Source of the DNA: a virus
Taxonomy: Duplodnaviria; Heunggongvirae; Uroviricota; Caudoviricetes
DNA: 16,216 bases
Reading direction: 5' to 3' (one strand)
Virus record (IMG/VR): IMGVR_UViG_2778261420_000018
Location: 1-16,216 of that record
Within the stretch, counting starts at the first letter, position 1; the number at the start of each line of letters is the position of its first letter. The notes beneath the pieces are model-generated. The model was not told where the DNA came from and did not search any database. It was given only the letters and a program-made list of their open reading frames with translations. A program made the position numbers and the translations under genes. Shown one piece after another: positions 1-14,610 of the stretch.

Positions 1-99
1 AGTATTCTGCGCAATTTCCCCGACGGTCGCCGGTTCGGTGACGCTTAATTCATTAAACACCACTCTGGCGGTTTCAGTCATATCCTGCTGTTTTAGCAT
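1..99 (-). CDS. Partial CDS (N-terminus only, continues past window start); hypothetical protein, N-term MLKQQDMTETARVVFNELSVTEPATVGEIAQNT
   Basis: ATG at 99..97 (minus) preceded by a purine-rich AAAGGGAAAAGG stretch; frame open for 33 codons to the window edge. Too short to classify. Confidence 0.3.
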   Translation of the reverse strand, partial: MLKQQDMTETARVVFNELSVTEPATVGEIAQNT

Positions 100-214
100 G
101 CCTTTTCCCTTTTCTGGTTAACGTGACATACCAATAACTCTTGTCGAAAAAGCCAGCAAGCTGAAAGACCGATATTAATAACTACCAGCGCGTTTAATGT
201 ACCGCACTTCGGGC

Positions 215-242
215 ATCAAAAAACCCGCTCAATGGCGGGTTT
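215..242 (-). terminator. Rho-independent terminator closing the 262..1059 gene
   Basis: Perfect 8-bp stem aaacccgc/gcgggttt (221-228 / 235-242) with 6-nt loop tcaatg; on the minus strand the hairpin is followed by TTTTTTG. It lies about 20 nt after the stop codon at 262-264. Confidence 0.6.
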
Positions 243-261
243 AATTAATGAGGTAATAACC

Positions 262-1059
262 TTAACTTGTTTGATTCTGTACTTCAGTGGCCTTCTTCCC
301 TTCAATACCTGCCTTGAAAGTCTCGAATGTTTCAACATTAAACAGCGAAAAAGATTCGATCTGATCGAAGGGCAACACATGCCTAAACTGATAAACTGAC
401 AATGGCTCAGAAGTTAATGTGATACCCTGACTAAGGTAGTAGTCCACATAATTATGCTCAACACAAAAAGTCAGAGTATCTTTATCTCTGTACCCGGACA
501 TAAAAGGGATTAGCACCAATGTGTTAGTATCTAACTGATTGAAACGTGCCTCATCAATCATCCCCACATAGACCTTGCGAGACTTCAGTGTAACCAACAA
601 TAACAATCCACGCTCAACTGATTCAAGAAGGATATTTTCCACGGCACTATGAGCCGCAATTTCTTCAAAAATAGCCTTGCGCTTTTGTGGGTCTTTATGG
701 TTTTTGGTTGCCTCTGATGCCTTCCCGATACTTACAATAATAGTGAAAGCTATCGACATAGCAGAGAACATGCTCAACCCAAACACTCGCATTTTGAGAA
801 AGTCATGGGCGAAAGTAAAGGGAGCGTACCAACCAAACAAGTACGCTGGAATGTTCCAAAGTGACATTCCAGCGTACAGAACAACAACCAATAAGGCAGC
901 GATAAGAATACCACTTATGAGAAACTCACCACCTTTCAGTGCAACATCAAAGTATGCATTCCAACCGATCGCTTTGCTTTGACGGTATCGTGACGGCAAA
1001 TGGCAGTTGGTATAGTGATAACCACAAACTAAAACAATAACAATCAGCGCAGCCCACAT
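262..1059 (-). CDS. Hypothetical inner-membrane protein, 265 aa: N-terminal ~115 aa with 3-4 hydrophobic helices, C-terminal ~150 aa soluble domain of unknown function
   Basis: Long ORF; hydrophobic segments (WAALIVIVLVCGY, FLISGILIAALLVVVLYAGMSLW, VFGLSMFSAMSIAFTIIVSIG) then a charged linker (KNHKDPQKRK) and a soluble domain. The upstream gene stop is 6 nt away (coupled). AT-rich (about 35-37% G+C on hand-counted lines) versus about 50-55% in the replication genes. No family recognised. Confidence 0.7.
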   Translation of the reverse strand: MWAALIVIVLVCGYHYTNCHLPSRYRQSKAIGWNAYFDVALKGGEFLISGILIAALLVVVLYAGMSLWNIPAYLFGWYAPFTFAHDFLKMRVFGLSMFSAMSIAFTIIVSIGKASEATKNHKDPQKRKAIFEEIAAHSAVENILLESVERGLLLLVTLKSRKVYVGMIDEARFNQLDTNTLVLIPFMSGYRDKDTLTFCVEHNYVDYYLSQGITLTSEPLSVYQFRHVLPFDQIESFSLFNVETFETFKAGIEGKKATEVQNQTS

Positions 1060-1065
1060 AGAAGA

Positions 1066-1293
1066 CTAACCCTTCTTCTTAGTACTCAATCCCTTAATAT
1101 TGGCTGCGAAAGCCTTTTGCACATCAGCGTTGTTGCGATTCAAAACCATCGAACCATTACTATCAATGAAAAACTTGTCACTTTCATGCTTAGCTTCTTT
1201 TCCATCACACATGGAAGCTATATCTGCAATTTTTTTGATGATCTTCTCAGGTGAGAGGATCGCGCGAGCGGCAAGTGTTAGATATTTCGGCAT
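1066..1293 (-). CDS. Hypothetical small protein, 75 aa (MPKYLTLAARAILSPEKIIKKIADIASMCDGKEAKHESDKFFIDSNGSMVLNRNNADVQKAFAANIKGLSTKKKG); first gene of a two-gene cassette
   Basis: Internal ATG at 1293..1291 is preceded by a strong SD (GGAGGGGAG, 5 nt spacing). The longer ORF to 1350 would add a hydrophobic N-terminus (MCAYFVCVLFVFYLL...) but its ATG lacks a properly spaced SD, so the start is ambiguous. Confidence 0.55.
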   Translation of the reverse strand: MPKYLTLAARAILSPEKIIKKIADIASMCDGKEAKHESDKFFIDSNGSMVLNRNNADVQKAFAANIKGLSTKKKG

Positions 1294-1471
1294 GCTCCCC
1301 TCCGTTAACAGATAAAAAACAAAAAGCACACAAACAAAGTATGCGCACATCCTAACCTATGTGGCTAACAACCACTTTCTTTTATAAGATGAGTGTATTA
1401 CCTAAAGGGTAACTCGGCAATAGCAGAATAGTTTTAGCAAGGTAAAACCGATGGTCTTTCGCTCAACTTAC

Positions 1472-1500
1472 GACAAAAGATAGCCCGCTCAGCAGCAGGC
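1472..1500 (-). terminator. Candidate tR'-like intrinsic terminator downstream of the Q-like gene
   Basis: On the minus strand GCCTGC-TGCTGA-GCGGGC (6-bp stem including one G-U pair, 6-nt loop) is followed by UAUCUUUUGU. Position matches lambda PR'/tR' logic. Weak stem, hence low confidence. Confidence 0.3.
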
Positions 1501-1553
1501 TTTGTTTAGTTTGCCATCGTGTACAAAATCAGCAAAATATCAGATTTACACGA

Positions 1554-1582
1554 AATATACGCGATTTAATTGACTTTTGCAA
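1554..1582 (-). promoter_or_regulatory. Candidate late promoter (PR'-like), minus strand: TTGCAA - 17 bp - TATATT
   Basis: -35 TTGCAA at 1582..1577 and -10 TATATT at 1559..1554 with a 17-bp spacer, overlapping the 3' end of the Q-like gene and about 50 nt upstream of the candidate terminator. Analogous to lambda PR' -> 6S RNA -> tR'. Confidence 0.35.
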
Positions 1583-2261
1583 TAACCCGCCGCGAAAAGG
1601 TCGCTTTTTGTTGCGATCTTGTTTTCATGGTATAAATCAAAGATTCGTTGTCGAGGTTCTTAAAAATGTCGCACATATCACGCCAGTAGTGCGCATAATT
1701 GTGGCTCCAGTTGTCTGACTTAACTCCACACAGTCTGGCAAGTTCCTGTCGCTGGTAGACGTCACACCCAGTAATCCTCCCCCTGACATCCTGCGCCGCC
1801 AGCCAGATTAATTTCTTCAGACGCTCAAGCGTTTTCCCTGTAATTTTTCTGGTGCCAAAATGCACCTGAAACTTATCCCACGCCCATTTCGCAATGACCA
1901 CCTGATAATCCCAACTCGGATTTTCACTGTATACCCACAGTACCCATGCCTTCTGATGCTCTTCAAGAGACAGAACGGCGCGTCGCCATGATGATGTCGA
2001 AAACTCAACCGGACTGACCAGGGCAATTGATGAACCTTTCGCCAGCGATTGCTTTCCCGGGATCGGTGGATTATCCAGCGTTACCATTTTTCCAGTGACC
2101 TTATCGCGGTACCGGATTTTTTTACGTCTGTAACGCCCTGTATCAAACATGGCATTCTCCTGCCAGGCTTCAAGCTGACCTTTTGTTGCCCCACTCAAAT
2201 CGGCGGTGGCGATAATGAGCTGCTCACGAACAAACTGTAAATACTGGTTATTCATGCGCAC
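1566..2261 (-). CDS. Putative late-gene antiterminator, Q-like (about 229 aa)
   Basis: Sits immediately downstream of rusA at the end of the early-right operon, the canonical Q slot. A likely ATG start at 2255..2253 overlaps the rusA stop as ATGA; the ORF-track start at 2261 is GTG. Candidate PR'/tR' follow it. My recollection is that Q-like antiterminators of cryptic E. coli lambdoid prophages are of this size and type; not verified. Confidence 0.5.
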   Translation of the reverse strand: MRMNNQYLQFVREQLIIATADLSGATKGQLEAWQENAMFDTGRYRRKKIRYRDKVTGKMVTLDNPPIPGKQSLAKGSSIALVSPVEFSTSSWRRAVLSLEEHQKAWVLWVYSENPSWDYQVVIAKWAWDKFQVHFGTRKITGKTLERLKKLIWLAAQDVRGRITGCDVYQRQELARLCGVKSDNWSHNYAHYWRDMCDIFKNLDNESLIYTMKTRSQQKATFSRRVIAKVN

Positions 2262-2611
2262 TCCAGCTCTGTGATTTTTATCCCCAACCGACCACCAGGA
2301 ACAGGCAGTCCGCGCACAATATTGATTTCATCAAACTGCTCGTCGTCGATAAGCAACCCCGCATGTGTCAGTGCATCCAGTGGTGCTTTCAGAATATTGT
2401 CCAGGTCACGACGGCGCTTATCCGGTGGCTCTGCAATCACCTTTATCGCCAGCCGTCCGGACAGGTTTAATTTCAGCCGCTGCTCGCGAACAATTAGCGC
2501 CACATCCCGGCGATAACGCTCACCGGCTTTTGATACAAAATATGTGTTGTCACGACGTCGCCAGTAGGTGTTCACCGTTGGCGGATAAGGCAAAACAAAC
2601 TCTATACGCAT
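2252..2611 (-). CDS. rusA: Crossover junction endodeoxyribonuclease RusA (Holliday junction resolvase), 119 aa
   Basis: Clear similarity to E. coli RusA as I recall it: N-terminal LPYPPTVNTYW (RusA: LPWPPSNNRYY), the catalytic-region motif RRRDLDN, then K..DALT.AG...DD and GGRL..ITE. SD GAGG precedes the ATG. Confidence 0.9.
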   Translation of the reverse strand: MRIEFVLPYPPTVNTYWRRRDNTYFVSKAGERYRRDVALIVREQRLKLNLSGRLAIKVIAEPPDKRRRDLDNILKAPLDALTHAGLLIDDEQFDEINIVRGLPVPGGRLGIKITELECA

Positions 2612-2623
2612 CAGTAACCTCTT

Positions 2624-3619
2624 TTACCCAAGCACGCCGGTTGCAAAGGCGTGATCAAGAAAATGAAAAATTAAATCAACCTGGGAACCATGCTTTTCTT
2701 CGAATACCAGCGGATCCGCATGAAGCTCGTTGTGATGCTCCCGACACAGCGGTAGTGTGAAAATATCGTGGGATTTTGTTCCCATTCCACCCTGACCGTG
2801 GCCTATCAGATGGTGGGGATCATCAGCAGGCTTTCCACAACATGCACACGGCTGTGTCTTAACCCAGCGCGTGTACTTTTCATTAACCCAGCGGCGACGT
2901 TTTGGGCGTAACATAAAAGACTCCGGCGACTCTGGATCCACTTTCAGCGCCAGCACCTTTTTCGCTTTATCCTGGATAATGCTGGTGGCAGGAACCGAAG
3001 GAACAAGGTCACTCTCCCGGGTGACAGACGGCACAACAGGCTTCGGTAATCTCAGTGCCTTACGGGCTGCACTTTCCGGTAAGGCATCAGCCAGGTCATT
3101 ACGAGCCAGCCACCAGCACAGTTCCGGCATTGTCACAACGTGACTGTCATCAAAACCGAGATCCCGACGCACAACAGACAACGCCCAGCGGGCACAGTTA
3201 TCCGTTGCCATTGATTCCAGCCGTTCCGTGAACTGATCGCGCAGCTGGTTATCGCAGTGCCAGCACAGACGGATTGCGCCCGGAGCGTGTCGCATTGTGG
3301 TCATGTTCTCGCTGTGCCAGTTGGAATGAGGCCACTGACAGCCCTTTTCACGAAGTAACCAGCTTTCAAGACATTCCACGCCACCAGCACGACGGATCAC
3401 TGCCTCATTGCGGAACACGGCCCGAACGGCAGGATCATCCGCCAGCGGTTGTGATGCCGCCGGAACGGCACCACTGGCAAAAGATGAATAACGTTCCGGC
3501 TCAGGCTCCAGCAGGACACGCCCCTGCATAAACAGGGGCATCAGCTCTGAACCGGGCCTGAACAATACGATCCCCATACGCGGGGCAATTTCAGGGGTCA
3601 GTAGTGCTCTCACGGTCAC
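2624..3619 (-). CDS. DUF968-like prophage protein with C-terminal Cys/His (HNH-like) motif, 331 aa
   Basis: C-terminus CACCGKPADDPHHLIGHGQGGMGTKSHDIFTLPLCREHHNELH is a Cys/His-rich putative metal-binding motif, which I recall as typical of a conserved lambdoid family found between the replication genes and rusA/Q. GTG start at 3619; exact start uncertain. Confidence 0.65.
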   Translation of the reverse strand: MTVRALLTPEIAPRMGIVLFRPGSELMPLFMQGRVLLEPEPERYSSFASGAVPAASQPLADDPAVRAVFRNEAVIRRAGGVECLESWLLREKGCQWPHSNWHSENMTTMRHAPGAIRLCWHCDNQLRDQFTERLESMATDNCARWALSVVRRDLGFDDSHVVTMPELCWWLARNDLADALPESAARKALRLPKPVVPSVTRESDLVPSVPATSIIQDKAKKVLALKVDPESPESFMLRPKRRRWVNEKYTRWVKTQPCACCGKPADDPHHLIGHGQGGMGTKSHDIFTLPLCREHHNELHADPLVFEEKHGSQVDLIFHFLDHAFATGVLG

Positions 3620-3664
3620 CTCAGCGAACGGTATTGCATGAACGCAGAAGAAAAAATTCAGCCA

Positions 3665-3922
3665 TCACGCAGTAAACTCCTTCACCAGTATTTCAAACTG
3701 GCTTACCTGGCCTTCCAGTTCCGCCACGCAATCCACCAGCTCATCCACCGCCTTTTGTGTGCGGTGTTTTGCCAGCAGCAGATCACGCAGCGCCGGAGTA
3801 AGCTGCTTGCGGAGCGTATCCTTTGCCACGCTCGTTTTTTCCATCTGTTCAGCACAACGAAGCATCTCCTGCGCCTGCCGACGAAGTTGTTCCGGTGAAA
3901 CAGTGGTTGTTCTGTTATTCAA
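3665..3922 (-). CDS. Hypothetical small protein (85 aa), predicted helical/coiled-coil
   Basis: ORF in the operon; TTG start overlaps the DnaB-like stop (TTGA); GGAG lies about 10 nt upstream. An internal ATG (MLRCAEQ...) is an alternative start. Confidence 0.5.
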   Translation of the reverse strand: MNNRTTTVSPEQLRRQAQEMLRCAEQMEKTSVAKDTLRKQLTPALRDLLLAKHRTQKAVDELVDCVAELEGQVSQFEILVKEFTA

Positions 3923-5310
3923 AATAAACGCTCCGTTTTACTGCCCGACATGCGGTTATTGCTGTATCTGCGCGGATTGCCCGGCGTCATGGGTGTGGAA
4001 AGAACCCGGGCACTCTCCTGGTCCACTGGCAGAAAATGTCCGTTATGAAAACGCCGGTAAATGGTCCCGAGCGTGCCATTACGCTGTTTCGTGATGTTGA
4101 TTTCTGCTATGCCTCCGGCCTGCGTTTCCGGGTTGTATACCTCATCCCTGTAAAGCATCAGAATGATGTCGGCATCCGCCTCGATTTCCCCGGAGTTTTT
4201 CAGGTCCGAGTTCATGGGGCGTTTATTGGGTCTGGATTCCACGCCGCGGGAGAGCTGGCTCAGAGCAATCAGCGGAAAACCGCCGGATTTTGCCAGGCTT
4301 TTAAGTCCCTTTGAGATTTCCCCCACCGCAAGGTCGTGACGCCCCGTGCTGCGGGTTTTAATCAGGCCGAGGTAATCGACCACCACCAGCGCCGTTTCCG
4401 GGTGTTTCATCCAGTGGTGCTTCGTGGTTGCACATATCTCATCAATGGTCAGGTTTGCCTGGTCCACCATCCAGATATTACGCCCCGTCATTCGTCCCAC
4501 ACCCTGTGAGAAGCGTGCCCAGTCTTCGTCTTCAAAACGGGCAACAGACTTAAGACGGGATACCGGCATTCCACCGGCAGCAGACACCATACGTTCACCA
4601 ATCTGGATGTTCGCCATCTCCATGGTGAACAGAAGCACGCCATGCCCCTGCTCAGTCACCTTGTCGATGATGTCCAGCGCCAGTTCGGTTTTGCCCATTG
4701 ACGGACGAGCCGCAATAAATACCAGGTCGCCGGGCTCCATGCCGCCTGTTTTTGCGTCCAGTTCATCAATACCGGTCATCAGCATTCTGGATTTCTCCAG
4801 TCCCTGATTCCGGCATTCAACACGGTCGACCACTTCCGGAAGTACATCATCAATGTGAACAGGCTGAATGACGCCCTTTTCCATCGACAATGAGGCCATC
4901 ATGTTTTGAGCATCCTTCAGAGCATCTTCAGCTGCTTCACAGGTATGCGCATCACGTAATTTCTGCAGCGCCTCATTCAGTGTTTTTTCTGCATCACGCA
5001 ATGCGGCATTGCGCCGCAGCGCTGCAACATAGTGCTCCAGTGACGACTTCACCCAGGTTTTGCGCCCGGTATCAGTAATCACCGGGGCAAGTTCCGGCAT
5101 ATCATTGCACAGCAGCACAGGATCAATCGCACCTGAAACACGGGCCTGTCTGCAGATGCCTGTGTAGATATCCCGATACGCTCGTACAGAAAAAACGTCC
5201 GCCGGTAGTGTGGCCAGAATATCCATCACTTCATGATCTGCCCCTCGCAGAAAAAACGCGCCAATGACAGCGCCTTCCAGGTCATCGTTACGCCAGACAG
5301 GAGAAGTCAT
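3919..5310 (-). CDS. Replicative DNA helicase, DnaB-like (phage-encoded), 463 aa
   Basis: Walker A AARPSMGKTELAL; other conserved DnaB-type C-terminal segments (VVVDYLGLI, SQLSRGVESRPNKRPMNSDLKNSGEIEADADIILMLYRDEVY); SD GAGGTG; start overlaps the DnaC-like stop. Confidence 0.9.
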   Translation of the reverse strand: MTSPVWRNDDLEGAVIGAFFLRGADHEVMDILATLPADVFSVRAYRDIYTGICRQARVSGAIDPVLLCNDMPELAPVITDTGRKTWVKSSLEHYVAALRRNAALRDAEKTLNEALQKLRDAHTCEAAEDALKDAQNMMASLSMEKGVIQPVHIDDVLPEVVDRVECRNQGLEKSRMLMTGIDELDAKTGGMEPGDLVFIAARPSMGKTELALDIIDKVTEQGHGVLLFTMEMANIQIGERMVSAAGGMPVSRLKSVARFEDEDWARFSQGVGRMTGRNIWMVDQANLTIDEICATTKHHWMKHPETALVVVDYLGLIKTRSTGRHDLAVGEISKGLKSLAKSGGFPLIALSQLSRGVESRPNKRPMNSDLKNSGEIEADADIILMLYRDEVYNPETQAGGIAEINITKQRNGTLGTIYRRFHNGHFLPVDQESARVLSTPMTPGNPRRYSNNRMSGSKTERLF

Positions 5311-6194
5311 GCAGCCACACCTCTGATACGAGAACGATAGCTGGGCCAGTTAAACGACAACCAGTTGCGTCCCCCGTCTGTGATCCTGTCGGCAATGCGG
5401 GGGCTGATGAATGCCCACAACTCTTCCGGTGAAAGGTTGCTGATCAGGATGGTGGGCAGGATGCTTTCGTACCGGGCATTGATAATTTCCTGCAAAATAG
5501 CCATTTCAGCCGCGCTGCCAAACTGAACGCCGACTTCGTCGATGATCAGCAAATCCATTGACGCATAATGCTCAATAACTTCATCCGCTGTTTTTTCGCT
5601 GTCATTTCGCCAGCAGTTTTTCACAGCACGGGTAAGGCGCATCACATCAGTAATCTCCACACTAGCCAGATGGTTACGGATGATGTGTTTTGCCATAGCC
5701 ACAGCCAGATGATTTTTTCCAGTACCACAACTGCCTGTCAGAACAAGACTGGTACCGTTAGCCAGAACATCCTCCCAGCTCTCCGCATAGCGGCGGCAGG
5801 CAGCAAGATTTCTGGCTGCATCAGAGTTAATCTCCTGATAGTTTTCAAACTCACAGTCGCGAAACCTACAGGCAACACCAGCATTCTCAATCAGCACATC
5901 AGCTTTCATTGCAACCAGAGTCCGATGTGTCACATCCATTTCATCCACCAGACACTCCGGACAGCGGGAAATTTTTGAGGCAGCGCCCCCCTGCCGATCA
6001 TCCCACACCAGTATATGCGTACGATATTTACCGTGTTTTTCGCAGCATCCAACCCCTTCAGATTCCCGACAGGCACGGTAAGGCCATGGCTTTTCGCCAT
6101 TCTGAGCAAATGCAATCTCTGCCCGTAACTCATCCATTCGCGCCTGTAGTCTTGTTTGTTTCTCACGTTGGTCAATCGTCATCATCGCTGTCAC
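5307..6194 (-). CDS. Helicase loader, DnaC/IstB-like AAA+ ATPase, 295 aa
   Basis: Walker A GSCGTGKNHLAVAMA and Walker B LLIIDEVG; N-terminal Cys cluster (CCEKHGKY...CPEC). Sits between the O-like and DnaB-like genes. Confidence 0.85.
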   Translation of the reverse strand: MTAMMTIDQREKQTRLQARMDELRAEIAFAQNGEKPWPYRACRESEGVGCCEKHGKYRTHILVWDDRQGGAASKISRCPECLVDEMDVTHRTLVAMKADVLIENAGVACRFRDCEFENYQEINSDAARNLAACRRYAESWEDVLANGTSLVLTGSCGTGKNHLAVAMAKHIIRNHLASVEITDVMRLTRAVKNCWRNDSEKTADEVIEHYASMDLLIIDEVGVQFGSAAEMAILQEIINARYESILPTILISNLSPEELWAFISPRIADRITDGGRNWLSFNWPSYRSRIRGVAA

Positions 6195-6195
6195 C

Positions 6196-7188
6196 TCAGA
6201 ATGTCAATTTGTTACTGGATTTACCGAATTTGTCAGACATGGCTCCCAGGCCAGCCAGGACATCGACCTGTCGCTGTCGCCCACCTCCGTGAGCGGCTGG
6301 CTGTTGCCAGTAATCTTCGAAGTGACGATCGGGTCCAAAGAACGTCGCAGCCTGCTTCACGAACTGTGTGCCGGTATTTCCTGTAGCACGTACCCAGGCG
6401 GCATACCGCTTCACGCCATCAAGCATGGTCTCCGGTTTTATTCCCTCCCTGATACGGGCTTTCCAGGCTTTGAAGGCTGCTGACTTGGAATTGCCACCAG
6501 CACGTTTGGGATATTCCTGCCAGGCCTGTTCAAATTCCGGTGAATATTCCTGTCGGGCAGAACGCGCTGGCGCAGACGCGTCAGCGGATGCATCAATAGT
6601 GTTTTTAGTCTCCGTTGTAATCTCTGTAGTAATCTCTGTATTTGTATCAACATTCGGCGTATCCCCTGTTCCGTTATGACGTCGGGGGGTGTTCCGTTTT
6701 AACGTAATAGCTGTATCGCTGATTGCATTATTGCTGTTACTTTCTGGCGAAACAGAAGAAGGTGTGGTGATGGCCGCAATTGCCTGTGGGTTGATCCCGA
6801 CAAACAAAATATTGCTGCATTTCACCCCATCGAGCATTTCCACCGTGCGTAAATCCAGAGTAATAAACCCTGCATCGCGCAGACGCTTCAGCGCATCTGC
6901 GGTTTCCCTTTTCCCGAAACCAAACTGCTCAGCAAACGCCTGGTAGCTTCTTTGCAGTTTGTCGCCCTGAAAACGCTTGCGATATCCCAGCAACGCTCCG
7001 GTGTGCTCATCCCTGACCTCTGTCGGGCGGTACCAGTAAACGATCTCTGAAAGCAGAGCGATAGCCGTCGCATCCGGACGCCCACTGGGTAGTCGAATAT
7101 ATTTCCACCAGTTCGCAGGTGTAACATTGCCGGAAATATTAATTTGACCAATAGCCATAACTTCCGGTGTGGGGGCGTAACGGCTCAT
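6196..7188 (-). CDS. Replication initiation / replisome organiser protein (lambda O-like N-terminal region, TEITTEITTE linker, C-terminal DnaT-like domain), 330 aa
   Basis: Strong SD AAGGAGG; start overlaps the upstream gene stop; central low-complexity linker encoded by tandem DNA repeats; C-terminal EFEQAWQEYPKR...KAWKARI resembles the DnaT/primosome C-terminal domain often fused to phage replication initiators. Confidence 0.75.
   Translation of the reverse strand: MSRYAPTPEVMAIGQINISGNVTPANWWKYIRLPSGRPDATAIALLSEIVYWYRPTEVRDEHTGALLGYRKRFQGDKLQRSYQAFAEQFGFGKRETADALKRLRDAGFITLDLRTVEMLDGVKCSNILFVGINPQAIAAITTPSSVSPESNSNNAISDTAITLKRNTPRRHNGTGDTPNVDTNTEITTEITTETKNTIDASADASAPARSARQEYSPEFEQAWQEYPKRAGGNSKSAAFKAWKARIREGIKPETMLDGVKRYAAWVRATGNTGTQFVKQAATFFGPDRHFEDYWQQPAAHGGGRQRQVDVLAGLGAMSDKFGKSSNKLTF
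6611..6698. repeat. Iteron-like direct repeats inside the O-like gene (candidate replication origin)
   Basis: Perfect tandem 12-mer GTAATCTCTGTA x2 (6617-6640) followed by a partial copy; GTTCCGTT repeated at 6668-6675 and 6691-6698; TCCGTTGTA at 6611. In lambda the ori iterons lie inside O in the inter-domain linker. Confidence 0.35.
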
Positions 7189-7484
7189 ACAACCTCCTTC
7201 CGCGGCATGAGAATTGTGTAGCCACGCGCAGGTTGTAGTCTGGCTTTTGCATCAATAGTAAGCGTTGCAATTTTTCGGATATGAAGATAACCAGCTCTTT
7301 CCAGTGCCAGGGTTTCCCTGAATATCGCTTGCTTAGAACAACAGCAGAAATCAGCAAGCACCTGATGATCAATAACTCTCTCGCCTTCACCGTCTGAAGA
7401 ACCCGACATCAAAACACGCAACATAATCAGGCGCTGAATCGGGTTATCGAAAGCACATCCGCACACAAACTGAAAACAGTTCAC
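7185..7484 (-). CDS. Hypothetical protein (99 aa), possible winged-helix DNA-binding protein
   Basis: ORF coupled on both sides (ATGA overlaps at 7481-7484 and 7185-7188); the segment VIDHQVLADFCCCSKQAIFRETLALERAGYLHI looks like an HTH. Confidence 0.55.
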   Translation of the reverse strand: MNCFQFVCGCAFDNPIQRLIMLRVLMSGSSDGEGERVIDHQVLADFCCCSKQAIFRETLALERAGYLHIRKIATLTIDAKARLQPARGYTILMPRKEVV

Positions 7485-7705
7485 GCCACACCTCCCAGAC
7501 GCTTAAACATTTTTCCAGACAGAAATACCGCCAGAGGGTAACTGATGGTGTAGCTACGCCCCTGTAGTTCGCACACGACTTTCTGGCTTTCAGCGTTGAC
7601 TAGGCAAACCCGCAGAACGTGGCCGTTGCTGGTGGCAAACCACTGCCCCACACGGGGGCAACGGTTGTATCGGTGATACAGGGAATTAACGACGCGGCGA
7701 ATCAT
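7481..7705 (-). CDS. Hypothetical small protein (74 aa; MIRRVVNSLYHRYNRCPRVGQWF...)
   Basis: Best start is the ATG at 7705..7703, preceded by GGAGGT with 6-nt spacing and overlapping the upstream stop (ATGA). The ORF-track start at 7720 lacks an SD. Confidence 0.5.
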   Translation of the reverse strand: MIRRVVNSLYHRYNRCPRVGQWFATSNGHVLRVCLVNAESQKVVCELQGRSYTISYPLAVFLSGKMFKRLGGVA

Positions 7706-8064
7706 GGGCGCACCTCCCATTGATTACGACGGAAAACAGTGTGATTCAGGTTGGTCTCAGCCTCATGGAATGCTTCAATGCAGCTCTCGTAGTACCGCAT
7801 TGTGCGCAGACTTAACCCAAGCTGAAGCATCATCAGACCATCAAGGGTGATGTAATAACCACGCAGGGAGTCACCGTAGATGTGATAAGTACCCGGTATG
7901 AAATTGCGGGTAAAAAACTCGCGTGAGCAGTTCAGATACTCGATTTTGTCGACGATGTTCTGGTGCATGCGCTTAAAGTGGCAGGCAACATGCAGGGAGA
8001 AAATAACGGCCTTGCCGTTGACAACTTCAATTTTCAGGTATGGGGAAGTTGGGACTGTAGCCAT
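7702..8064 (-). CDS. Hypothetical protein (120 aa from MATVPTSPYLKIEVV...); the ORF could extend to 8364 (220 aa)
   Basis: Internal ATG at 8064..8062 has a GGAGG SD 8 nt upstream. The upstream 100 codons lie in a GC-rich stretch where three frames are open and the ATG at 8364 has no SD. Confidence 0.5.
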   Translation of the reverse strand: MATVPTSPYLKIEVVNGKAVIFSLHVACHFKRMHQNIVDKIEYLNCSREFFTRNFIPGTYHIYGDSLRGYYITLDGLMMLQLGLSLRTMRYYESCIEAFHEAETNLNHTVFRRNQWEVRP

Positions 8065-8448
8065 GATGGCAGCCTCCGTATGCAATGGATAACTTCCACC
8101 ACCGGAGGTGCAAATCTCGCTGGTGGCGGACTGAACAGGGTTTGCACTACCGGCGCATACGGAAACCGGCGAGCCTTTCGGCTCCCCTGCCCAGCCCACC
8201 ATAATTCTGGCGTGCGCGAGCATGAACGATAAAAAAGACGCTGGCGCGTCATATATCGCCGTATGCAATTCCGGGGTGCAAATCCCGGCACCCGCTTTAT
8301 AAGGTGCCTGAACAGTGTAACGTCCCGAAATTGCAGAATCAATATTTGGTCTTGAAATGATCATATAGCTGCTGATATCTTTAGAACTGTTCTTGGATGT
8401 TTCGGAACCGTTTTATGCGAAACAGCTCCCCGTTATTGATGTTGAGTG

Positions 8449-8474
8449 AGCCGGGTTACTCCCGGCTTTTTTTT
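8449..8474 (+). terminator. Strong plus-strand intrinsic terminator, antisense to the early-right operon, abutting the rha stop codon
   Basis: agccggg (8449-8455) / loop ttact / cccggct (8461-8467), followed by T8 (8467-8474). On the minus strand the hairpin is preceded by A8 and not followed by a U-run, so it is oriented for plus-strand transcripts. Confidence 0.55.
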
Positions 8475-9181
8475 CACCGCTGCCAACCAATAACCTGAAA
8501 TAACCCCATTTTCGGGTGATACCAGCGAGTCCCTCGCGGTTCTGCTTCCTCCATAACCCGATAAAAAGCAGCCATAAACGGTTCCACAGCAACAATTGCG
8601 CGACGTGACAACAATCCGTCCGGCGTCATGAACTCATGGGTGTCTGTAGGAATTTGATAAGCGTTCACCAGATTGCGGCATTTATCATCTGACAAACCGG
8701 TTTTCGCTTTCAGTTGGCGATATCCGGCATAGCCCTCACGAATGGTGCCCTTTTTGATTTGCTCAACTGTTTCGGCAACGTGGCTGACTTTTTCTTCCAC
8801 CTGAGTGATCCGTTTCTGCTGACGAACTGCTTCAAGAGCCATCGCGGCAACCATTTCGATTTCGCTCATTGGCTTACGGATCTGTTCTTCCAGTTCGCGC
8901 CAGCGATCTACCAGGCGAGCAGTGAATTCAGGACAGAGCTGTGCGACGACAATGATGCTGTCGCGCTTACCTTGTTCTCCTTCAAACAGGTAATGCTCAT
9001 ATTGAACTTTAAAACCTAAGTTATTGATTCTTTCGGAAACCTCAATTTGAGGAGACCGGACAACGCCACCTTTGGCTAATGTTTCAATAGTGCGTTTCAC
9101 ATTGTCATGACGTTTACCCACCAGCTCTGCAATTTCAACGCTGGTCATGGATACTTTGCCGTTAAAAATTGCGATGTTCAT
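8474..9181 (-). CDS. rha: Phage regulatory protein Rha (N-terminal Rha domain), 235 aa
   Basis: N-terminal signature SVEIAELVGKRHDNVKRTIETL (Rha-family xxGKRHDNVxR motif); SD AGGAGA 6 nt upstream; start overlaps the cro-like stop (ATGA). Confidence 0.8.
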   Translation of the reverse strand: MNIAIFNGKVSMTSVEIAELVGKRHDNVKRTIETLAKGGVVRSPQIEVSERINNLGFKVQYEHYLFEGEQGKRDSIIVVAQLCPEFTARLVDRWRELEEQIRKPMSEIEMVAAMALEAVRQQKRITQVEEKVSHVAETVEQIKKGTIREGYAGYRQLKAKTGLSDDKCRNLVNAYQIPTDTHEFMTPDGLLSRRAIVAVEPFMAAFYRVMEEAEPRGTRWYHPKMGLFQVIGWQR

Positions 9182-9468
9182 TGTTTATCTCCTGCGTGTA
9201 TTCCATCCGCTCTGTGTGGTGAACTTGGATTTAGGCTTTTGCGTAACAAGTTAGGAATTCCATCTTCAGGGTGAGGATAAAGATCTGGCCTTAAGCCATG
9301 AGGCGTAACCTTCCATGCAACTACTTCACATACTCGTAAAACGAAACGAGCAGGAATTGTGCTTTTTGAAAACCACTGATTCACCGCTTGCGGCGTCACA
9401 CCAAGATTTCGCGCTATGGCATTTTGCGCAATTAATGCACGAAGTTTGTCGTAATCATTTCCTTCCAT
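9178..9468 (-). CDS. Cro-like / YdaS-family HTH regulator (96 aa), first gene of the early-right operon
   Basis: HTH LGVTPQAVNQWFSKSTIP followed by a ...GLRPDLYPHPED segment characteristic of YdaS/Cro-like prophage regulators; divergent from the CI-like repressor. Confidence 0.7.
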   Translation of the reverse strand: MEGNDYDKLRALIAQNAIARNLGVTPQAVNQWFSKSTIPARFVLRVCEVVAWKVTPHGLRPDLYPHPEDGIPNLLRKSLNPSSPHRADGIHAGDKQ

Positions 9469-9601
9469 AACAAAGCACCAATATTAACTTTATAAATCAA
9501 GAATACATCAAGTTTAAATTAACATGCAAGTTACAAAAGGATCGAATACACTAAAATCAAGTAAAGATTTATCCTTGTAAAGAAACCCACAGGATTTGGT
9601 C
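9469..9601. promoter_or_regulatory. Divergent immunity-region control region (PR/PRM-equivalent promoters and operators)
   Basis: 133-bp AT-rich intergenic region between divergent cro-like and cI-like genes; repeated motifs ATCAAG(T) at 9496-9501, 9507-9513 and 9556-9562, and ACATCAAGTT / ACATGCAAGTT. Exact operators not resolvable by eye. Confidence 0.5.
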
Positions 9602-10291
9602 ATGAAGAACGTCAAAAACACGGAAAATCGAATAGCCGCGATGCTGAAAGCAAAAGGATGGACTCAGGCTCAACTGGCCCGCAAGTTAGGTGTGAGTGCG
9701 CAATCAGTGCAGTACTGGACAACAGGAAAAACATTTCCACGGAGTGATAAGCTCGCGCATTTATCAGAGATTAGCGGTTATCCACAATCCTGGTTCTTAG
9801 GTGAAGACTCCTCACCAACCTTTTCCTCGCAAGAGAAACACCAGACAAGAACAGATAGCGTCGTGTTTAATGTCCTTGATGTTGAGTTTAGTTGCGGTGA
9901 TGGAACTCATGTCCGTGGTGACTTGATAGATGTAGTGCGCTCAATAGAACTTGATCCTGAATATGCCCGACGTCTTGTTGGAAATCGGGCATTCAAAAAT
10001 ATAGAAATAGGTAACGCCAGAGGAGACAGTATGGCTCCCACAATCTCACCTGGCGACCTTCTTTTTCTTGATAAGACAGTAACTTATTTTGATGGCGATG
10101 GTATTTATGCATTTTGTTTTGATGGAGAATGCTACGTGAAAAGGCTTCAGAAAATTGGAAGCAAAATCATGGTGTTATCTGATAACCCCAATTATCAACC
10201 ATGGAGCATCGAAAAAGAGGGGTTAGCTCTGCTTTATATCCAGTCTAAAGTGATCTCATCAGTACCATTCAACATAAACAGATTTGGTTAG
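9602..10291 (+). CDS. CI-like prophage repressor with N-terminal HTH and C-terminal S24 (LexA-like) self-cleaving peptidase domain
   Basis: HTH GWTQAQLARKLGVSAQSVQYW; C-terminal GDSMAPTI (Ser nucleophile motif) and YVKRL (Lys). SD AGGA 7 nt before the ATG at 9602; the ORF-track start at 9596 is TTG. Confidence 0.85.
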   Translation: MKNVKNTENRIAAMLKAKGWTQAQLARKLGVSAQSVQYWTTGKTFPRSDKLAHLSEISGYPQSWFLGEDSSPTFSSQEKHQTRTDSVVFNVLDVEFSCGDGTHVRGDLIDVVRSIELDPEYARRLVGNRAFKNIEIGNARGDSMAPTISPGDLLFLDKTVTYFDGDGIYAFCFDGECYVKRLQKIGSKIMVLSDNPNYQPWSIEKEGLALLYIQSKVISSVPFNINRFG

Positions 10292-10302
10292 TCTTTGATT
10301 TT

Positions 10303-10325
10303 AACGGGCTTTGCCCGTTTTTTTT
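10303..10325 (+). terminator. Rho-independent terminator after the cI-like gene
   Basis: aacgggc / ttt / gcccgtt hairpin followed by a T8 run, 12 nt after the stop codon. Confidence 0.7.
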
Positions 10326-10355
10326 CTGCCTGAAATATACGATATCAATTTTTTC

Positions 10356-10384
10356 TTGACAGCCTATTTCCCAAAACATAATAT
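10356..10384 (+). promoter_or_regulatory. Near-consensus sigma70 promoter for the 10438-11138 cassette (TTGACA - 17 bp - TAATAT)
   Basis: TTGACA at 10356-10361, 17-bp spacer, TAATAT at 10379-10384, about 55 nt upstream of the ATG at 10438, directly after the cI terminator. Confidence 0.5.
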
Positions 10385-10437
10385 CGCACCATCAATTATA
10401 ACTTGATTTTATTCAATTTAAAATTGTTGGCGGATAT

Positions 10438-10899
10438 ATGAAGACACTAAAAGCAACTCCAGAAACAACTAATTTTATCAACTGCGGCTGTGTTACGCTT
10501 AAGGGCTTAGAACTTGATTCCTTTGCATTAAATATTGCAAATTTGCTAAGTGCTGTACGCACATTCCATCTTCTGGATTGTGCTCGCTCAAAGGAACTGG
10601 GCATTGAGGTAATGGAATTTATCCATGAATATGCTCTATCTGCTGCTTCTCCTGCACAACAAAAACAATCCTTCCCTGAAAGCTGGCTGGTTAACCTTCG
10701 CACCCAACGCGAAGCCTGCGGCTTAACAACCGCCGAACTCGCCAGGCTGCTCGATCTCGATGAAGAAATTATCATCCAGTGGGAGAGCGGAGAGTATGAA
10801 CCAACTATCAGTATGCTTATCCCACTGGCAAATATTCTTGGCTGCGATGCGATGTGGCTGTTAACTGGCGAAACGGCAGCAAAGGATATCTGCGCATGA
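10438..10899 (+). CDS. Hypothetical protein with C-terminal XRE-family HTH and an N-terminal ~85-aa domain of unknown function (153 aa)
   Basis: C-terminal GLTTAELARLLDLDEEIIIQWESGEYEPTISMLIPLANILGCDAMWLLTG is a classic Cro/C1-type HTH; the N-terminal domain is not recognised. Own promoter; AT-rich (about 37% G+C on a hand-counted line). Confidence 0.7.
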   Translation: MKTLKATPETTNFINCGCVTLKGLELDSFALNIANLLSAVRTFHLLDCARSKELGIEVMEFIHEYALSAASPAQQKQSFPESWLVNLRTQREACGLTTAELARLLDLDEEIIIQWESGEYEPTISMLIPLANILGCDAMWLLTGETAAKDICA

Positions 10900-11138
10900 A
10901 AAACTGTGATGCTTACCATATTTGTCTCATTGGTGAATTGCTTGATTTCATACAAAAAAGCACTGCGCGCAATAATAAAAATATAACATATGGTGATCTG
11001 GTAATAATTTCAGAGGATATAAAGAGCATCGCTCTTAAATTCAAGGGCGACGCGAGTATTGATGACGCTATTTACGCTTATCTTGCGAAAATAATTGACG
11101 GATCCAAAATCCAGCCTCTGGATGAACCTCGTCAGTGA
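10896..11138 (+). CDS. Hypothetical small protein (80 aa; MKNCDAYHICLIGELLDFIQKSTARNNKNITYGDLVIISEDIK...), translationally coupled to the preceding gene
   Basis: ATG at 10896 overlaps the upstream stop (ATGA); AAAGGA lies 9 nt upstream. Its 3' 71 nt overlap a convergent minus-strand ORF with a better SD, so one of the two may not be real. Confidence 0.45.
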   Translation: MKNCDAYHICLIGELLDFIQKSTARNNKNITYGDLVIISEDIKSIALKFKGDASIDDAIYAYLAKIIDGSKIQPLDEPRQ

Positions 11139-11295
11139 AAAACTCCTTTGATGAAGATGTGAACTGCTTCATAAACTTTACTTTATCTTCAGGTGAAACT
11201 ACCTGACGAATTAATGCGGAGATAGCAACTTTGTGCCAAATTAATTCTTTTTTGAGTTCTGAAATCTCTTTTTCGAGTTGCTCTGCGTTAATCAT
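11068..11295 (-). CDS. Hypothetical small charged protein (75 aa), predicted helical/coiled-coil
   Basis: Near-perfect SD GGAGGA 3 nt before the ATG (11295..11293). Convergent with, and overlapping, the 3' end of 10896..11138. Confidence 0.5.
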   Translation of the reverse strand: MINAEQLEKEISELKKELIWHKVAISALIRQVVSPEDKVKFMKQFTSSSKEFFTDEVHPEAGFWIRQLFSQDKRK

Positions 11296-11474
11296 TTATC
11301 CTCCATTGAGAGCTGAATTGAAAATGGGGACCAACACGCGGCTACGTGTGGTCGTGCGCCGGACACGGATAAGCATCCGGTAACTGATTATCAATCATTG
11401 CGGAAACAGTCTCAATATGAAAACACTTCTGAGACTCGCTATATAGCAGGACATATAAGTCAGCTGAGGAAGCC

Positions 11475-11840
11475 ATGAAAAAGTTCGAAAACATAATTGT
11501 TCTCCATGTTGATGACTTTGATTATACAAACCCGGAACTTCTCCCGGAGGTTGTAAAGGCAATAGATGTTGCCGATATAGTGATTAGAGGAAAGAGAATT
11601 GTCAAAAACAGGCTCGCATGCACTTCAGAAGCAATGACAGAAACAACCTCACAGCAAGATAATTACGAAGGCATTTGTCTGGAGCCTGATTCATTTGCGG
11701 TAAATGTTTATCATTTATTGCATGCAACACAGGTATTACATATGTCCAGTAATCACGAAACGAAAACACTCGGCAGCGAAATTCTGAATTTTGCATGTGA
11801 GTATGCAAAAACTGCTGCCGAAAAAGAATTAGCGCAATAA
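11475..11840 (+). CDS. Hypothetical protein (121 aa), first gene of the early-left operon
   Basis: ATG preceded by GAGGAAG; a TATATA -10-like element lies upstream; no recognisable family. Confidence 0.55.
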   Translation: MKKFENIIVLHVDDFDYTNPELLPEVVKAIDVADIVIRGKRIVKNRLACTSEAMTETTSQQDNYEGICLEPDSFAVNVYHLLHATQVLHMSSNHETKTLGSEILNFACEYAKTAAEKELAQ

Positions 11841-11918
11841 CAATAAATATGCCCTGAACGTTTATTGCAGTTTTATCGCCGGGGAATGTTACAATCTTAA
11901 TCCACAGGAGGCTTTATT

Positions 11919-12032
11919 ATGACTTTTATAAAGAATATGGCATCACACAAGACCGCCTGCCTTATTGCACAATACGGTGAAAATTACATGCATATTGCCT
12001 GCTTATTTCTGCGTAAAGCATACGAGAAATAA
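11919..12032 (+). CDS. Small ORF (37 aa; MTFIKNMASHKTACLIAQYGENYMHIACLFLRKAYEK)
   Basis: Not in the ORF track (below 60 aa). AGGAGG SD 7 nt before the ATG at 11919; stop 3 nt before the next gene start. Confidence 0.4.
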   Translation: MTFIKNMASHKTACLIAQYGENYMHIACLFLRKAYEK

Positions 12033-12035
12033 CAA

Positions 12036-12395
12036 ATGACACATGAACCCATTAATACATATCGTCGCCGTATAGCTGTTGCAGCACTCCATCGAATAAA
12101 ACGTAAAACAGGTGGTGATCTGCTTATTGTTGACCTTCCGGATGGGAACATTACGACCATAGAAATAACAGAACAGTTTATAACCCAGTTGCTGTTGCGC
12201 TTTGAAGATATTACCCGTGGTGAATTGGGTCGAGTGGAGGGTGAAACAGAATTCCGAACTGCATACCAGAATGCTATCGGGATTAATCAACATACTGAAT
12301 ACCAGGCTGAAACCGGAAAGTTAATTATAGACAACCTTTTACAAGAGGTTATTGATTACGCGAAAGAAAAATATATCAGCGGAGGAATTAACTGA
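12036..12395 (+). CDS. Hypothetical protein (119 aa)
   Basis: ORF coupled to the downstream gene (ATGA overlap at 12393-12397). Confidence 0.6.
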   Translation: MTHEPINTYRRRIAVAALHRIKRKTGGDLLIVDLPDGNITTIEITEQFITQLLLRFEDITRGELGRVEGETEFRTAYQNAIGINQHTEYQAETGKLIIDNLLQEVIDYAKEKYISGGIN

Positions 12396-12610
12396 TGGCT
12401 AATTTATCCCCTGTATCTGTTGTACACGAAAAAGTGCAGATCGTTATGACAATTGAAAATGGCCAGGTAACAGATGTCTGCAAAGTCCGCGATGGAGAGC
12501 TGATTGCCAGCATGGATACATTCATATGGCTGGCAGAAAGAGCGGGGTATCAGATAACAGCACCTGCTCAGGAGGAAACCAGTGACATTAACAGCAACAC
12601 GAATTCCTGA
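12395..12610 (+). CDS. Hypothetical small acidic protein (71 aa)
   Basis: GGAGG SD 9 nt before the ATG at 12395; overlaps the next gene by 29 nt. Confidence 0.55.
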   Translation: MANLSPVSVVHEKVQIVMTIENGQVTDVCKVRDGELIASMDTFIWLAERAGYQITAPAQEETSDINSNTNS

Positions 12611-12800
12611 GTGGGTCCACCAGCAGGCGTTGCTGGTCCTGCGGCGGTACAGATGCCGACGTATATTCCCGCATCGGATACAGCGCAACGGATATCTCAG
12701 TCTGAAGGTTAACCGTCGCTGGCGGCTGTTATCGAAAGACGACGGCCGGAACTGGGAAGTAATGAGTCATGAACGTTATTCGGGAGAAATAAAGAAATGA
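12582..12800 (+). CDS. Hypothetical small basic protein (72 aa), GTG start; weak RelE/ParE-like C-terminal pattern
   Basis: GGAGG SD 6 nt before the GTG at 12582. C-terminal LKVNRRWRLLSKDDGRNWEVMSHERY loosely resembles the RelE/ParE pattern; unverified. Confidence 0.5.
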   Translation: MTLTATRIPEWVHQQALLVLRRYRCRRIFPHRIQRNGYLSLKVNRRWRLLSKDDGRNWEVMSHERYSGEIKK

Positions 12801-13189
12801 TCGACAACCGCACCGCCAGCGCCATTGACCAGGCATTACAGAAACATGATACACCCATCGGCCCGTTATTTTTTGTAACACGCCACGGAAGAACAAAAAA
12901 ATGCCTCACCCGAAAAACGGCAATTCGTTACCTGGCATTCTTTATGACCACCCGCGCTTTTGAACGTTCAGGATTCCGACAGCGCCATCCTGACAAGCGT
13001 TTTATCTTCAACGGGAATGAGATATGGAAACGAGGAGAATCAACCACAGAGTATACCCGCGCACACCAGCGAACAATCAGACGACTGCGCAGACTCATCG
13101 CCAGGAAACAGTATACAGAAAAATGGTTCAGAAAATATGACACATGGAGCGCCGGATATTACGAACTGATGGCAACAAAACCATTCTGA
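12797..13189 (+). CDS. Hypothetical highly basic protein (130 aa; Arg/Lys-rich, likely nucleic-acid binding)
   Basis: ATGA overlap with the upstream stop; GGAGA 9 nt upstream; many R/K residues (RRLRRLIARKQYTEKWFRKYD). Confidence 0.55.
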   Translation: MIDNRTASAIDQALQKHDTPIGPLFFVTRHGRTKKCLTRKTAIRYLAFFMTTRAFERSGFRQRHPDKRFIFNGNEIWKRGESTTEYTRAHQRTIRRLRRLIARKQYTEKWFRKYDTWSAGYYELMATKPF

Positions 13190-13431
13190 CGTAAACGAAA
13201 TTAACCATGACGCAATTAAATAAGGCAAGCCGAATACATCAGGAGGACCAGGAACATTTATTTCAAAATAGTTATATCACTGGCAATTATCGCATGCATT
13301 TACGGATTAATCGTTTCGGCCCTCATATCAATGAAGGATACGGTAGCAGTGATTTCTGGTTTTGCTCTGGCGTGTCTGACCCCGCCGTGCATTTGTGCCA
13401 TTTATAAGGGGCTTTCTTTCACCAAGGATAA

Positions 13432-13765: not shown

Positions 13766-13806
13766 CTTAATATGCCCGGCAGACCGTCGGGCTAAGGGAA
13801 AAGCAG

Positions 13807-14178: not shown

Positions 14179-14209
14179 AGTTCTCGCTATTCAGAGAGCA
14201 GGAGAAAAA

Positions 14210-14452: not shown

Positions 14453-14455
14453 AGA

Positions 14456-14602
14456 ATGAATAAAGCGTTTGAGCTATGGGTGCGCCAGCGTTACGGCAAT
14501 CGCTATGACCTGACGCGAGATGTTGACGGCTTCTACTGTCGTGAAATTGTGAAACGAATGTTTGAAGTGTGGTGCCACTGCCGTGGGCTGAGTGTTGTGT
14601 GA
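14456..14602 (+). CDS. Small ORF (48 aa; MNKAFELWVRQRYGNRYDLTRDVDGFYCREIVKRMFEVWCHCRGLSVV), Cys/His-containing
   Basis: Not in the ORF track; AAGGAAG SD 8 nt before the ATG at 14456; fills the gap before the xis-like gene. Confidence 0.4.
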   Translation: MNKAFELWVRQRYGNRYDLTRDVDGFYCREIVKRMFEVWCHCRGLSVV

Positions 14603-14610
14603 GGTAATGT

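Follow-up and report, generated by a model that had tools for sequence, protein, structure and literature searches.

The moron concept comes from the lambdoid phages HK97 and lambda: a moron is an additional gene that brings its own promoter and terminator and lies between two genes adjacent in relatives. Here we describe such an element in a 16,216-nucleotide stretch of Caudoviricetes DNA (positions 1 to 16,216 of IMG/VR virus record IMGVR_UViG_2778261420_000018; hereafter "the window"). Near its left end, the gene for a Q-like antiterminator is followed by a pair of genes encoding a 75-amino-acid (75-aa) protein and a 265-aa membrane protein. Like lambdoid morons, the pair has flanks that are adjacent in empty-site relatives, a predicted promoter of its own, a terminator at its end, and a distinct base composition, and it moves between phages. 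Unlike them, it consists of two translationally coupled genes instead of one, and its closing terminator is a duplicated phage tR'-like hairpin. Because an empty site, a terminator, a composition shift, and a predicted promoter together make up the classical definition of a moron, we are highly confident that the pair is a self-contained, horizontally mobile two-gene moron cassette.

The closest known systems also include proteins with the Sm/LSm/Hfq fold, which is found as well in the WYL sensor domains of defense regulators. Unlike these, the window's 265-aa protein is predicted to be anchored in the membrane by three transmembrane (TM) helices, it has extra inserts and a C-terminal helix, and its conserved SGYRDKD stretch is not the canonical Sm2 motif. 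In MscS, three TM helices with an N-out/C-in topology are followed by a cytoplasmic Sm-like β domain that forms a ring in the heptamer. The window protein shares the TM count, the topology, and a predicted Sm-like domain in the same place, but it contains no MS_channel domain and no fold match to MscS appears among the listed matches.

At the level of whole systems, the pair can be compared with RexAB of lambda and with Cap15 of CBASS, in which TM helices are combined with a β-barrel. These are modules of prophages or islands in which a multi-TM protein carries, or lies beside, a small cytoplasmic sensing domain, and membrane collapse is the proposed outcome; RexAB, like the window pair, has two genes. 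In contrast to such abortive-infection membrane effectors, the pair shows no homology to them in PADLOC and no cyclase or signal enzyme, and its partner protein is only 55-95 aa. Type II toxin-antitoxin (TA) systems are likewise mobile, self-contained units in which a small gene is tightly coupled to a larger one downstream of it. However, the pair has no recognizable antitoxin (RHH, HTH, or AbrB) or toxin fold, and its putative toxin would be an integral membrane protein.

All coordinates below follow the window numbering, and at the left end every gene is encoded on the minus strand. The initial annotation placed genes for 75 aa and 265 aa, separated by a 6-nt gap, downstream of a Q-like antiterminator. 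Open reading frames (ORFs) and translation confirm both genes and the gap, with the small gene first, and the antiterminator has a strong Pfam match. A spacer of 272 bp separates Q from the small gene. The features are as follows:

240..1483, unstranded: inserted cassette of ~1.24 kb, absent from empty-site prophages (BLAST junctions)
1066..1293, minus strand: small partner gene, 75 aa, soluble product (translation)
262..1059, minus strand: large gene, 265 aa, with three TM helices, a linker, a predicted Sm/LSm-like barrel, and a C-terminal helix
1295..1303, minus strand: Shine-Dalgarno sequence GGAGGGGAG of the small gene, read from the sequence before the ATG; the upstream alignment shows conserved Shine-Dalgarno sequences of the GGAG type
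1392..1420, minus strand: the cassette's candidate sigma-70-like promoter, with -35 TTGCCG (1420..1415), a 17-nt spacer, and -10 TACACT (1397..1392), ~100 nt upstream of the small gene
215..245, minus strand: intrinsic terminator with an 8-bp G+C stem, a 6-nt loop, and U6, which closes the cassette and contains the downstream tR'-like copy (221..242, intact T-run)
1482..1501, minus strand: upstream tR'-like hairpin copy with an 8-bp stem and a degraded T-run (AUCUUUUGUC; terminator scan, -14.2 kcal/mol)
1554..1582, minus strand: putative pR'-like late promoter TTGCAA-17-TATATT at the 3' end of Q (consensus scan, 9/12 matches)
1566..2261, minus strand: Q antiterminator gene, at the start of the late region (Pfam PF06323, E 1.5e-83; PHROG 304, E 1.8e-101)
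1..99, minus strand: start of a 65-aa gene, phiP27 L23-like, which runs off the window (translation; annotated in related prophages)

Comparison with related prophages shows that the cassette is an insertion. In the ECL27977 prophage (record L096), the 65-aa gene follows Q after 212 bp with no cargo in between. BLAST aligns window positions 1-239 with 3001-3245 of this record and window positions 1484-2300 with 3230-4046. These alignments share 16 bp, which fall on the one tR'-like hairpin that the empty site has. Thus, the genes that flank the cassette are adjacent in related prophages, and the junctions in the window fall at ~239/240 and ~1483/1484. The slot is also empty in three further E. 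coli prophages that we sampled (L114, L115, and L116), where the 65-aa gene begins ~210 bp after Q.

The hairpins at the two junctions hint at how the insertion arose. A tR'-like hairpin occurs twice in the window, flanking the cassette, and only once in empty-site prophages. The upstream copy at 1482..1501 aligns to the single hairpin of the ECL27977 site and marks the right-hand junction of the insert, while on its T-run side the closing terminator is homologous to the one tR'-like terminator that empty-site prophages have. The hairpin is doubled around the cassette and single in empty sites, and this duplication points to recombination at terminator hairpins as the route by which cargo is exchanged at this slot. 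The closing terminator (245..215) folds at -15.9 kcal/mol with a z-score of -3.7, and none of 200 shuffled sequences folds as well. The cassette was originally said to end in its own terminator. A hairpin with a T-run is indeed present and closes the cassette, but it is not purely the cassette's own, being partly homologous to the phage tR'.

A promoter for the pair is predicted from comparison of diverged cassettes. Cassettes of Pantoea, Serratia, and Pantoea stewartii each have a single copy of the 11-mer GTAATACACTC, located upstream of the small gene. In three of them, which have diverged independently, it lies 89-112 nt from the small gene; in the window, the distance is ~98 nt. The 11-mer is part of a TTG(C/A)(C/A)G-17-TACACT element located at 1420..1392 in the window. 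More generally, TTGnnn-N16-18-TAnnnT occurs upstream of 18 of 20 cassettes, some of which are not independent of each other, compared to 6.0 +/- 2.0 in shuffled sequences (maximum 12 in 1,000 shuffles) and 0 of 20 on the reverse strand. The pR'-like region, for its part, is ~85% conserved in prophages whose slot is empty or otherwise filled. The 5' leader has no significant structure (z -1.2), and an Rfam search of positions 1-2400 gave only sub-threshold matches at chance level. One of them, at 1480-1550 on the minus strand, is to the Hfq-binding small RNA isrJ (21.7 bits, E 0.5; gathering score 37). This match, which spans the putative short leader transcript from pR' to the first hairpin, probably reflects chance.

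Base composition also sets the cassette apart from the neighboring phage genes. The G+C content of positions 215-1293 is 41.2%, compared to 47.8% in the Q gene and 51.4% in the replication block. The cassette is therefore AT-richer than its surroundings, as the initial annotation held, but the hand-counted value of 35-37% given there was too low.

The slot itself is variable. In strain PSS-15 (L095), the same junctions bracket a PemK/MazF toxin. Other sampled E. coli prophages carry an ORF6N protein or a CPBP-family protease (the latter in an O157 strain), and phiP27 has the GIY-YIG nuclease L22. With the empty state and the present pair, the slot occurs in at least six states, and the comparison of neighborhoods bears out the idea that it holds exchangeable cargo, with empty sites and at least five alternative cargoes. 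The 65-aa gene follows the slot in all related prophages, and a search of 5,426 complete E. coli genomes located this flank at 4,526 places in 2,097 of them. The cassette pair is present in just 14 of the 5,426; with empty sites also in evidence, it is not an invariable part of this prophage family. Within E. coli, the cassette is also found in lambdoid prophages with other replication and lysis modules, always in the order Q, pair, 65-aa gene, methyltransferase.

The surroundings of the cassette can be followed beyond the window, which is 99.9% identical to a prophage adjoining yecE in E. coli E200086. There, the genes beyond the cassette are, in order, the 65-aa gene, a DNA methyltransferase, tRNA-Ile, tRNA-Arg, TerB, DUF3927, two holins, an M15 endolysin, and the terminase. 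The distance from the cassette to the M15 endolysin is within ~4 kb. The absence of holin, endolysin, and Rz genes after the cassette, which had been noted from the window, is thus an artefact of its edge: the window ends ~3 kb before the lysis genes. The setting is a lambdoid prophage with a phiP27-type late region, in which the cassette lies directly downstream of Q and pR'.

This setting also corrects the earlier equation of the slot with the one that carries stx. In phiP27, stx2e comes after tRNA-Arg, ~2.5 kb downstream of the present slot, which is occupied there by L22. The present slot is distinct from the stx slot and upstream of it, so the cassette is not stx-type cargo by position. 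Stx-type late regions seem to have an undescribed hotspot for cargo in the interval that runs from Q/tR' to the 65-aa gene. In the E200086 record (L001), positions 11653-12227 encode TerB-family and DUF3927 proteins where phiP27 has stx2e.

The two genes of the cassette belong together far beyond E. coli. A genome scan yielded 80 loci of the large gene, and in 76 of these a same-strand ORF of 40-115 aa ends no more than 90 bp upstream of it, with a median gap of ~6 nt. Iterated hidden Markov model (HMM) searches identify 49 of the small upstream ORFs as homologs of the 75-aa protein, and the remaining ones show the same hairpin-helix pattern (VKVVGRGTVxID, for example). Conversely, searching from the small protein leads to a large gene immediately downstream. 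The pairing of the two genes is near-universal. No third gene is conserved near them, as 158 Pfam families are spread among 148 neighbors of the 80 loci.

The small protein combines a variable N-terminal helical part with a conserved β-hairpin-helix (FFIDSNGSMVLNRNNADVQKAFAANIKGL). In its AlphaFold2 model, the core reaches a pLDDT of ~84 and the overall value is 68.7. Searches with the window protein and 10 divergent partners found nothing credible in Pfam. We considered an AbrB/MazE-like reading of the hairpin-helix motif and found no support for it. Three 62-aa small partners from Photorhabdus (P0131, P0133, and P0136) carry the public name "multidrug ABC transporter ATPase," evidently a propagated mis-annotation.

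For the 265-aa protein, the AlphaFold2 monomer model is of high confidence (mean pLDDT 91.2, pTM 0.74). Hydropathy and the model agree on TM helices at approximately residues 2-19, 44-68, and 93-115, and the positive-inside pattern predicts an N-out/C-in topology, settling the original estimate of three to four N-terminal helices at three. After the third helix come a helical linker, a β-barrel within residues ~139-240 (the barrel itself at ~153-240), and a C-terminal helix. The cytoplasmic domain of ~150 aa had been called unrecognized. In the model, it has an N-terminal helix followed by a strongly bent five-stranded barrel, the defining arrangement of the Sm fold, and Foldseek agrees. Based on the model, we consider the cytoplasmic domain to be a membrane-anchored Sm/LSm-like barrel. 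At the sequence level, it cannot be placed in the LSM/Hfq families, as it has no Pfam match at E <= 0.1 and a profile of the family finds no PDB sequence at E <= 10. In BFVD, only unnamed Sm-like phage proteins were matched.

Neither protein of the pair has a match in Pfam (E <= 0.1) or NCBIfam. The large protein belongs to PHROG 3630, whose function is not known, and the database names are all "hypothetical"; no family of holins, lysis proteins, or housekeeping membrane proteins is matched. Among 66 relatives with 18-44% identity, DUF6338 (PF19865) gives weak matches in two, the best with an E value of 4.6e-5. The window protein has no match to this family at E <= 0.1, and DUF6338 itself comprises uncharacterized membrane proteins whose function is not known.

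The same 66 relatives reveal where the protein is constrained. Residues G13, Y36, and G43, in the first helix and first cytoplasmic loop, and K162, Y164, G166, P185, S188, G189, and Y204, in the barrel, are invariant, and R191 and F240 are nearly so. The second and third TM helices and the linker are free to vary. This clustering suggests that the barrel and the first cytoplasmic loop may be coupled to each other. The conserved loops KSRK and SGYRDKD are basic and aromatic, as might be expected of a nucleotide- or nucleic-acid-binding site. Additionally, one relative (P0282) carries a fused C-terminal DNA-binding domain of the H-NS/StpA type (Pfam E 1.2e-9; TWSGKGRRPKW), which hints that members of the family may engage DNA on their cytoplasmic side.

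The family is large. A profile search of 1.84 billion cluster representatives returned 2,751 clusters defined at 50% identity, 1,708 of them at E <= 1e-10, and nearly all are full length, at 240-310 aa. Hosts of the 80 loci range over the Enterobacterales, Vibrionaceae, Shewanella, Pseudomonas, Psychrobacter, Neisseriales, Burkholderiales, Acidobacteriota, and Balneolaceae. When hallmark genes of the window prophage were compared to the 80 loci by tblastn, most relatives proved not to share its phage type.

Among these relatives, the two genes have moved together into unrelated prophage slots. In Proteus, a siphovirus prophage has the pair between tail chaperone and tape-measure genes and a myovirus prophage has an identical pair between tape-measure and baseplate genes; the two prophages share 1.87 kb, of which 290 bp lie ahead of the small gene. 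The Proteus cassette also has a 77-aa ORF without a Pfam match just downstream of the pair on the opposite strand (L087/L088 6877-7110, minus strand). Another myovirus prophage carries the pair between baseplate and tail-fibre genes. It lies between lysis and terminase genes in Hafnia, within baseplate genes in Pantoea stewartii, and after NinG and a 222-aa gene without a Pfam match in Serratia, where ParDE adjoins it. In Klebsiella aerogenes, its neighbor is an Imm_superinfect (PF14373) gene.

A recurrent location is the gpA-gpQ locus of P2-like phages, known as the old/tin defense hotspot (Rousset et al. 2022, PMC9122126; PMC13586616). In Edwardsiella piscicida, the pair is the only ORF content called at >=80 aa between gpA and the portal gene gpQ. 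It is close to a portal gene in Dryocola, Citrobacter, and Photorhabdus, close to gpA in [Erwinia] mediterraneensis, and downstream of gpA, at the end of the record, in phages SEN4/SEN5. Klebsiella phage ST15-OXA48phi14.1 has it between gpA and the portal gene, near a TIR-domain protein. This 477-aa protein (L111 5559-6992) is encoded two genes downstream of the pair, inside the hotspot, and may be an independent defense gene or a functional associate of the pair. Relatives of the pair are therefore like other cargo of this locus in lying in or beside it, both in P2-like prophages and in ST15-OXA48phi14.1. They differ from it in that the pair is not among the systems named in PADLOC in 2023 and that the window copy occupies a lambdoid slot near Q. 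Together, the empty site, the alternative cargoes, the rarity and mobility of the pair, and the relatives in the P2 hotspot support the core of the original proposal: the slot after Q is variable, its cargo here is of the moron type and consists of a small soluble protein and a membrane protein of an undescribed family, and an accessory or defense role for it is plausible.

Given this distribution and the predicted structures, we regard a membrane-effector conflict or defense module as the most likely functional reading of the pair. Whether it is in fact an anti-phage or conflict module we judge to be about an even call. Tentatively, and as a reading well short of even odds, we propose that the pair defines a new and widespread two-component immunity class (~2,750 clusters, ranging from Proteobacteria to Acidobacteriota), in which a membrane-anchored Sm-like ring on the cytoplasmic side of the inner membrane senses phage nucleic acid or a nucleotide signal, has a hairpin-helix protein as its gatekeeper, and opens or disrupts the membrane. 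No system described so far would be a counterpart to such a defense architecture. The specific gated-ring membrane mechanism outlined below seems to us doubtful in its particulars.

In a lysogen, transcripts from pR' would stop at the first hairpin and the pair would be transcribed from its own predicted promoter. The flanking terminators would insulate the pair from pR' read-in, and the second would block read-through into the lysis genes; during lytic growth, Q-modified polymerase would read through both. The large protein may assemble into a ring via its Sm-like domains, bringing 18-21 TM helices together as in MscS, and the ring could be coupled to the TM bundle through the co-conserved first cytoplasmic loop. 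Such a ring would be a gated membrane effector, in which a cue, nucleic acid or nucleotide, is bound by the loops KSRK and SGYRDKD and by Tyr164/190/204. We picture the small partner bound to the cytoplasmic ring, where it would act as an antitoxin-like inhibitor or as an adaptor. Infection by another phage would then trigger the complex, the inner membrane would be depolarized or blocked, and the infection would be aborted or excluded. The anatomy and junctions of the cassette, the fold, the pairing of the genes, their mobility, and their presence in defense hotspots are what the comparisons and models show; we infer the oligomerization, the ligand, the interaction of the two proteins, and the phenotype.

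Several observations weigh against a defense function or against parts of this scheme. PADLOC-DB 2.0 (2023) has no match to either protein at E <= 1 or to the 66 relatives at E <= 0.01. The flanks of the 80 loci consist mostly of ordinary genes, few of which match defense families. Distant members, such as those of the Bryobacteraceae, are found in chromosomal, non-phage contexts, and at one metagenomic locus the pair sits at a purely chromosomal site; this location of distant members makes a more general membrane role possible. MscS is absent from the listed fold-search matches, so the channel analogy is architectural only. The model of the 75-aa protein has low confidence outside the core. 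Finally, the window's promoter agrees with the consensus at only 8 of 12 positions and was missed by the consensus scan. The protein accessions of the pair are absent from the DefensePredictor supplements, and searches of the literature on Sm-like TM defense, the accessions, phrog_3630, DUF6338, Tai systems, and AbjA found no description of the pair, with one incidental mention of DUF6338.

Other functions would account for some of the same features. As is typical of type II TA systems, the small gene comes first and lies only 6 nt from the next one, with tight coupling at 76 of the 80 loci, and the pair is self-contained, patchily distributed, and carried on mobile elements. Moreover, MazF occupies the same slot in another strain and ParDE adjoins the pair in Serratia. 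The cassette might accordingly be an addiction module that stabilizes the prophage or island, with the membrane protein as toxin, the small protein as antitoxin, and no dedicated anti-phage role. We think this rather unlikely. The small protein has no recognized antitoxin DNA-binding fold or Pfam match, it is conserved C-terminally and variable N-terminally, the reverse of most type II antitoxins, and occupancy of the P2 hotspot and moron slots fits defense cargo at least as well. The two interpretations also overlap, because many TA modules are abortive-infection systems. Superinfection exclusion by inner-membrane proteins is also known, as with T4 Imm, P22 SieA, and HK97 gp15, and the pair could be a complex in which an inner-membrane protein from a prophage moron and its small partner block the entry of incoming phage genomes without killing the cell. 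The Imm_superinfect gene beside the pair in Klebsiella aerogenes would suit this role, and a cytoplasmic fold of a nucleic-acid-binding type, fused to an H-NS domain in one relative, could engage entering DNA. However, known exclusion proteins form narrow, fast-evolving, single-gene families, whereas the pair retains invariant motifs from Enterobacterales to Acidobacteriota and Balneolaceae, in ~2,750 clusters. Such broad conservation speaks for a biochemical activity of a generic kind and against recognition of the injection machinery of one phage, and exclusion of this kind is in our view fairly improbable.

The MscS-like architecture of three TM helices with an N-out/C-in topology, followed by a predicted Sm-like β domain, raises the question of whether the pair is ordinary prophage cargo for lysogenic conversion or host fitness, such as an ion or osmolyte channel or an envelope-stress device. 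Many distant members adjoin housekeeping genes (MFS transporters, permeases, and glycosyltransferases) outside prophages, which would fit such a role. Yet no sequence match, and no fold match among those listed, links the protein to MscS or any channel family, and neither an obligatory small soluble partner nor repeated capture in defense hotspots and moron slots is expected of a housekeeping channel. We hold this explanation to be quite unlikely. The location of a membrane protein inside the late unit, between pR'/tR' and the lysis genes, could also point to a late lytic function in lysis timing or membrane remodeling, expressed only by Q-dependent read-through from pR'. This is very unlikely. 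Related prophages lack the cassette, true holins and an endolysin are encoded downstream, and the cassette has its own predicted promoter. The same pair occurs in tail, baseplate, P2 gpA-gpQ, and non-phage chromosomal sites, its position varies among phages, and neither Pfam nor PHROG places it in a holin or lysis family. On the strength of the empty sites, the varying positions, and the downstream holins and endolysin, which largely refute it, we rejected a lysis function.

Some annotations near the cassette and elsewhere in the prophage deserve mention. RefSeq phiP27 and some E. coli records give the 65-aa gene (13902-14099 of the E200086 record) the name "TrmB family transcriptional regulator"; the gene has no match in Pfam or NCBIfam. 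In the early-left region of the prophage, the ORF at 12582-12800 on the plus strand is annotated in RefSeq as a ParE-family toxin-like protein. Beside it, the region 9300-12400 is AT-rich, with 35-42% G+C.

Prophage accessory and conflict cassettes are already known as a kind; what is new here is an undescribed protein family. At 1.24 kb with its predicted native promoter, the system is small enough to be directly testable. Even if the pair does not act in defense, a three-TM, predicted Sm-like protein with a ~70-aa partner is an unexplained conserved unit that merits the definition of a family. If it is a defense or exclusion module, a large unannotated family (~2,750 clusters, with no Pfam, NCBIfam, or PADLOC model) would join the immune repertoire, and the Sm/Hfq-type fold would appear for the first time as the cytoplasmic module of a membrane effector. 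The position after tR' in phiP27- and Stx-type prophages would then be a second cargo hotspot beside the stx slot, which would bear on how accessory genes are exchanged among the prophages of pathogenic E. coli.

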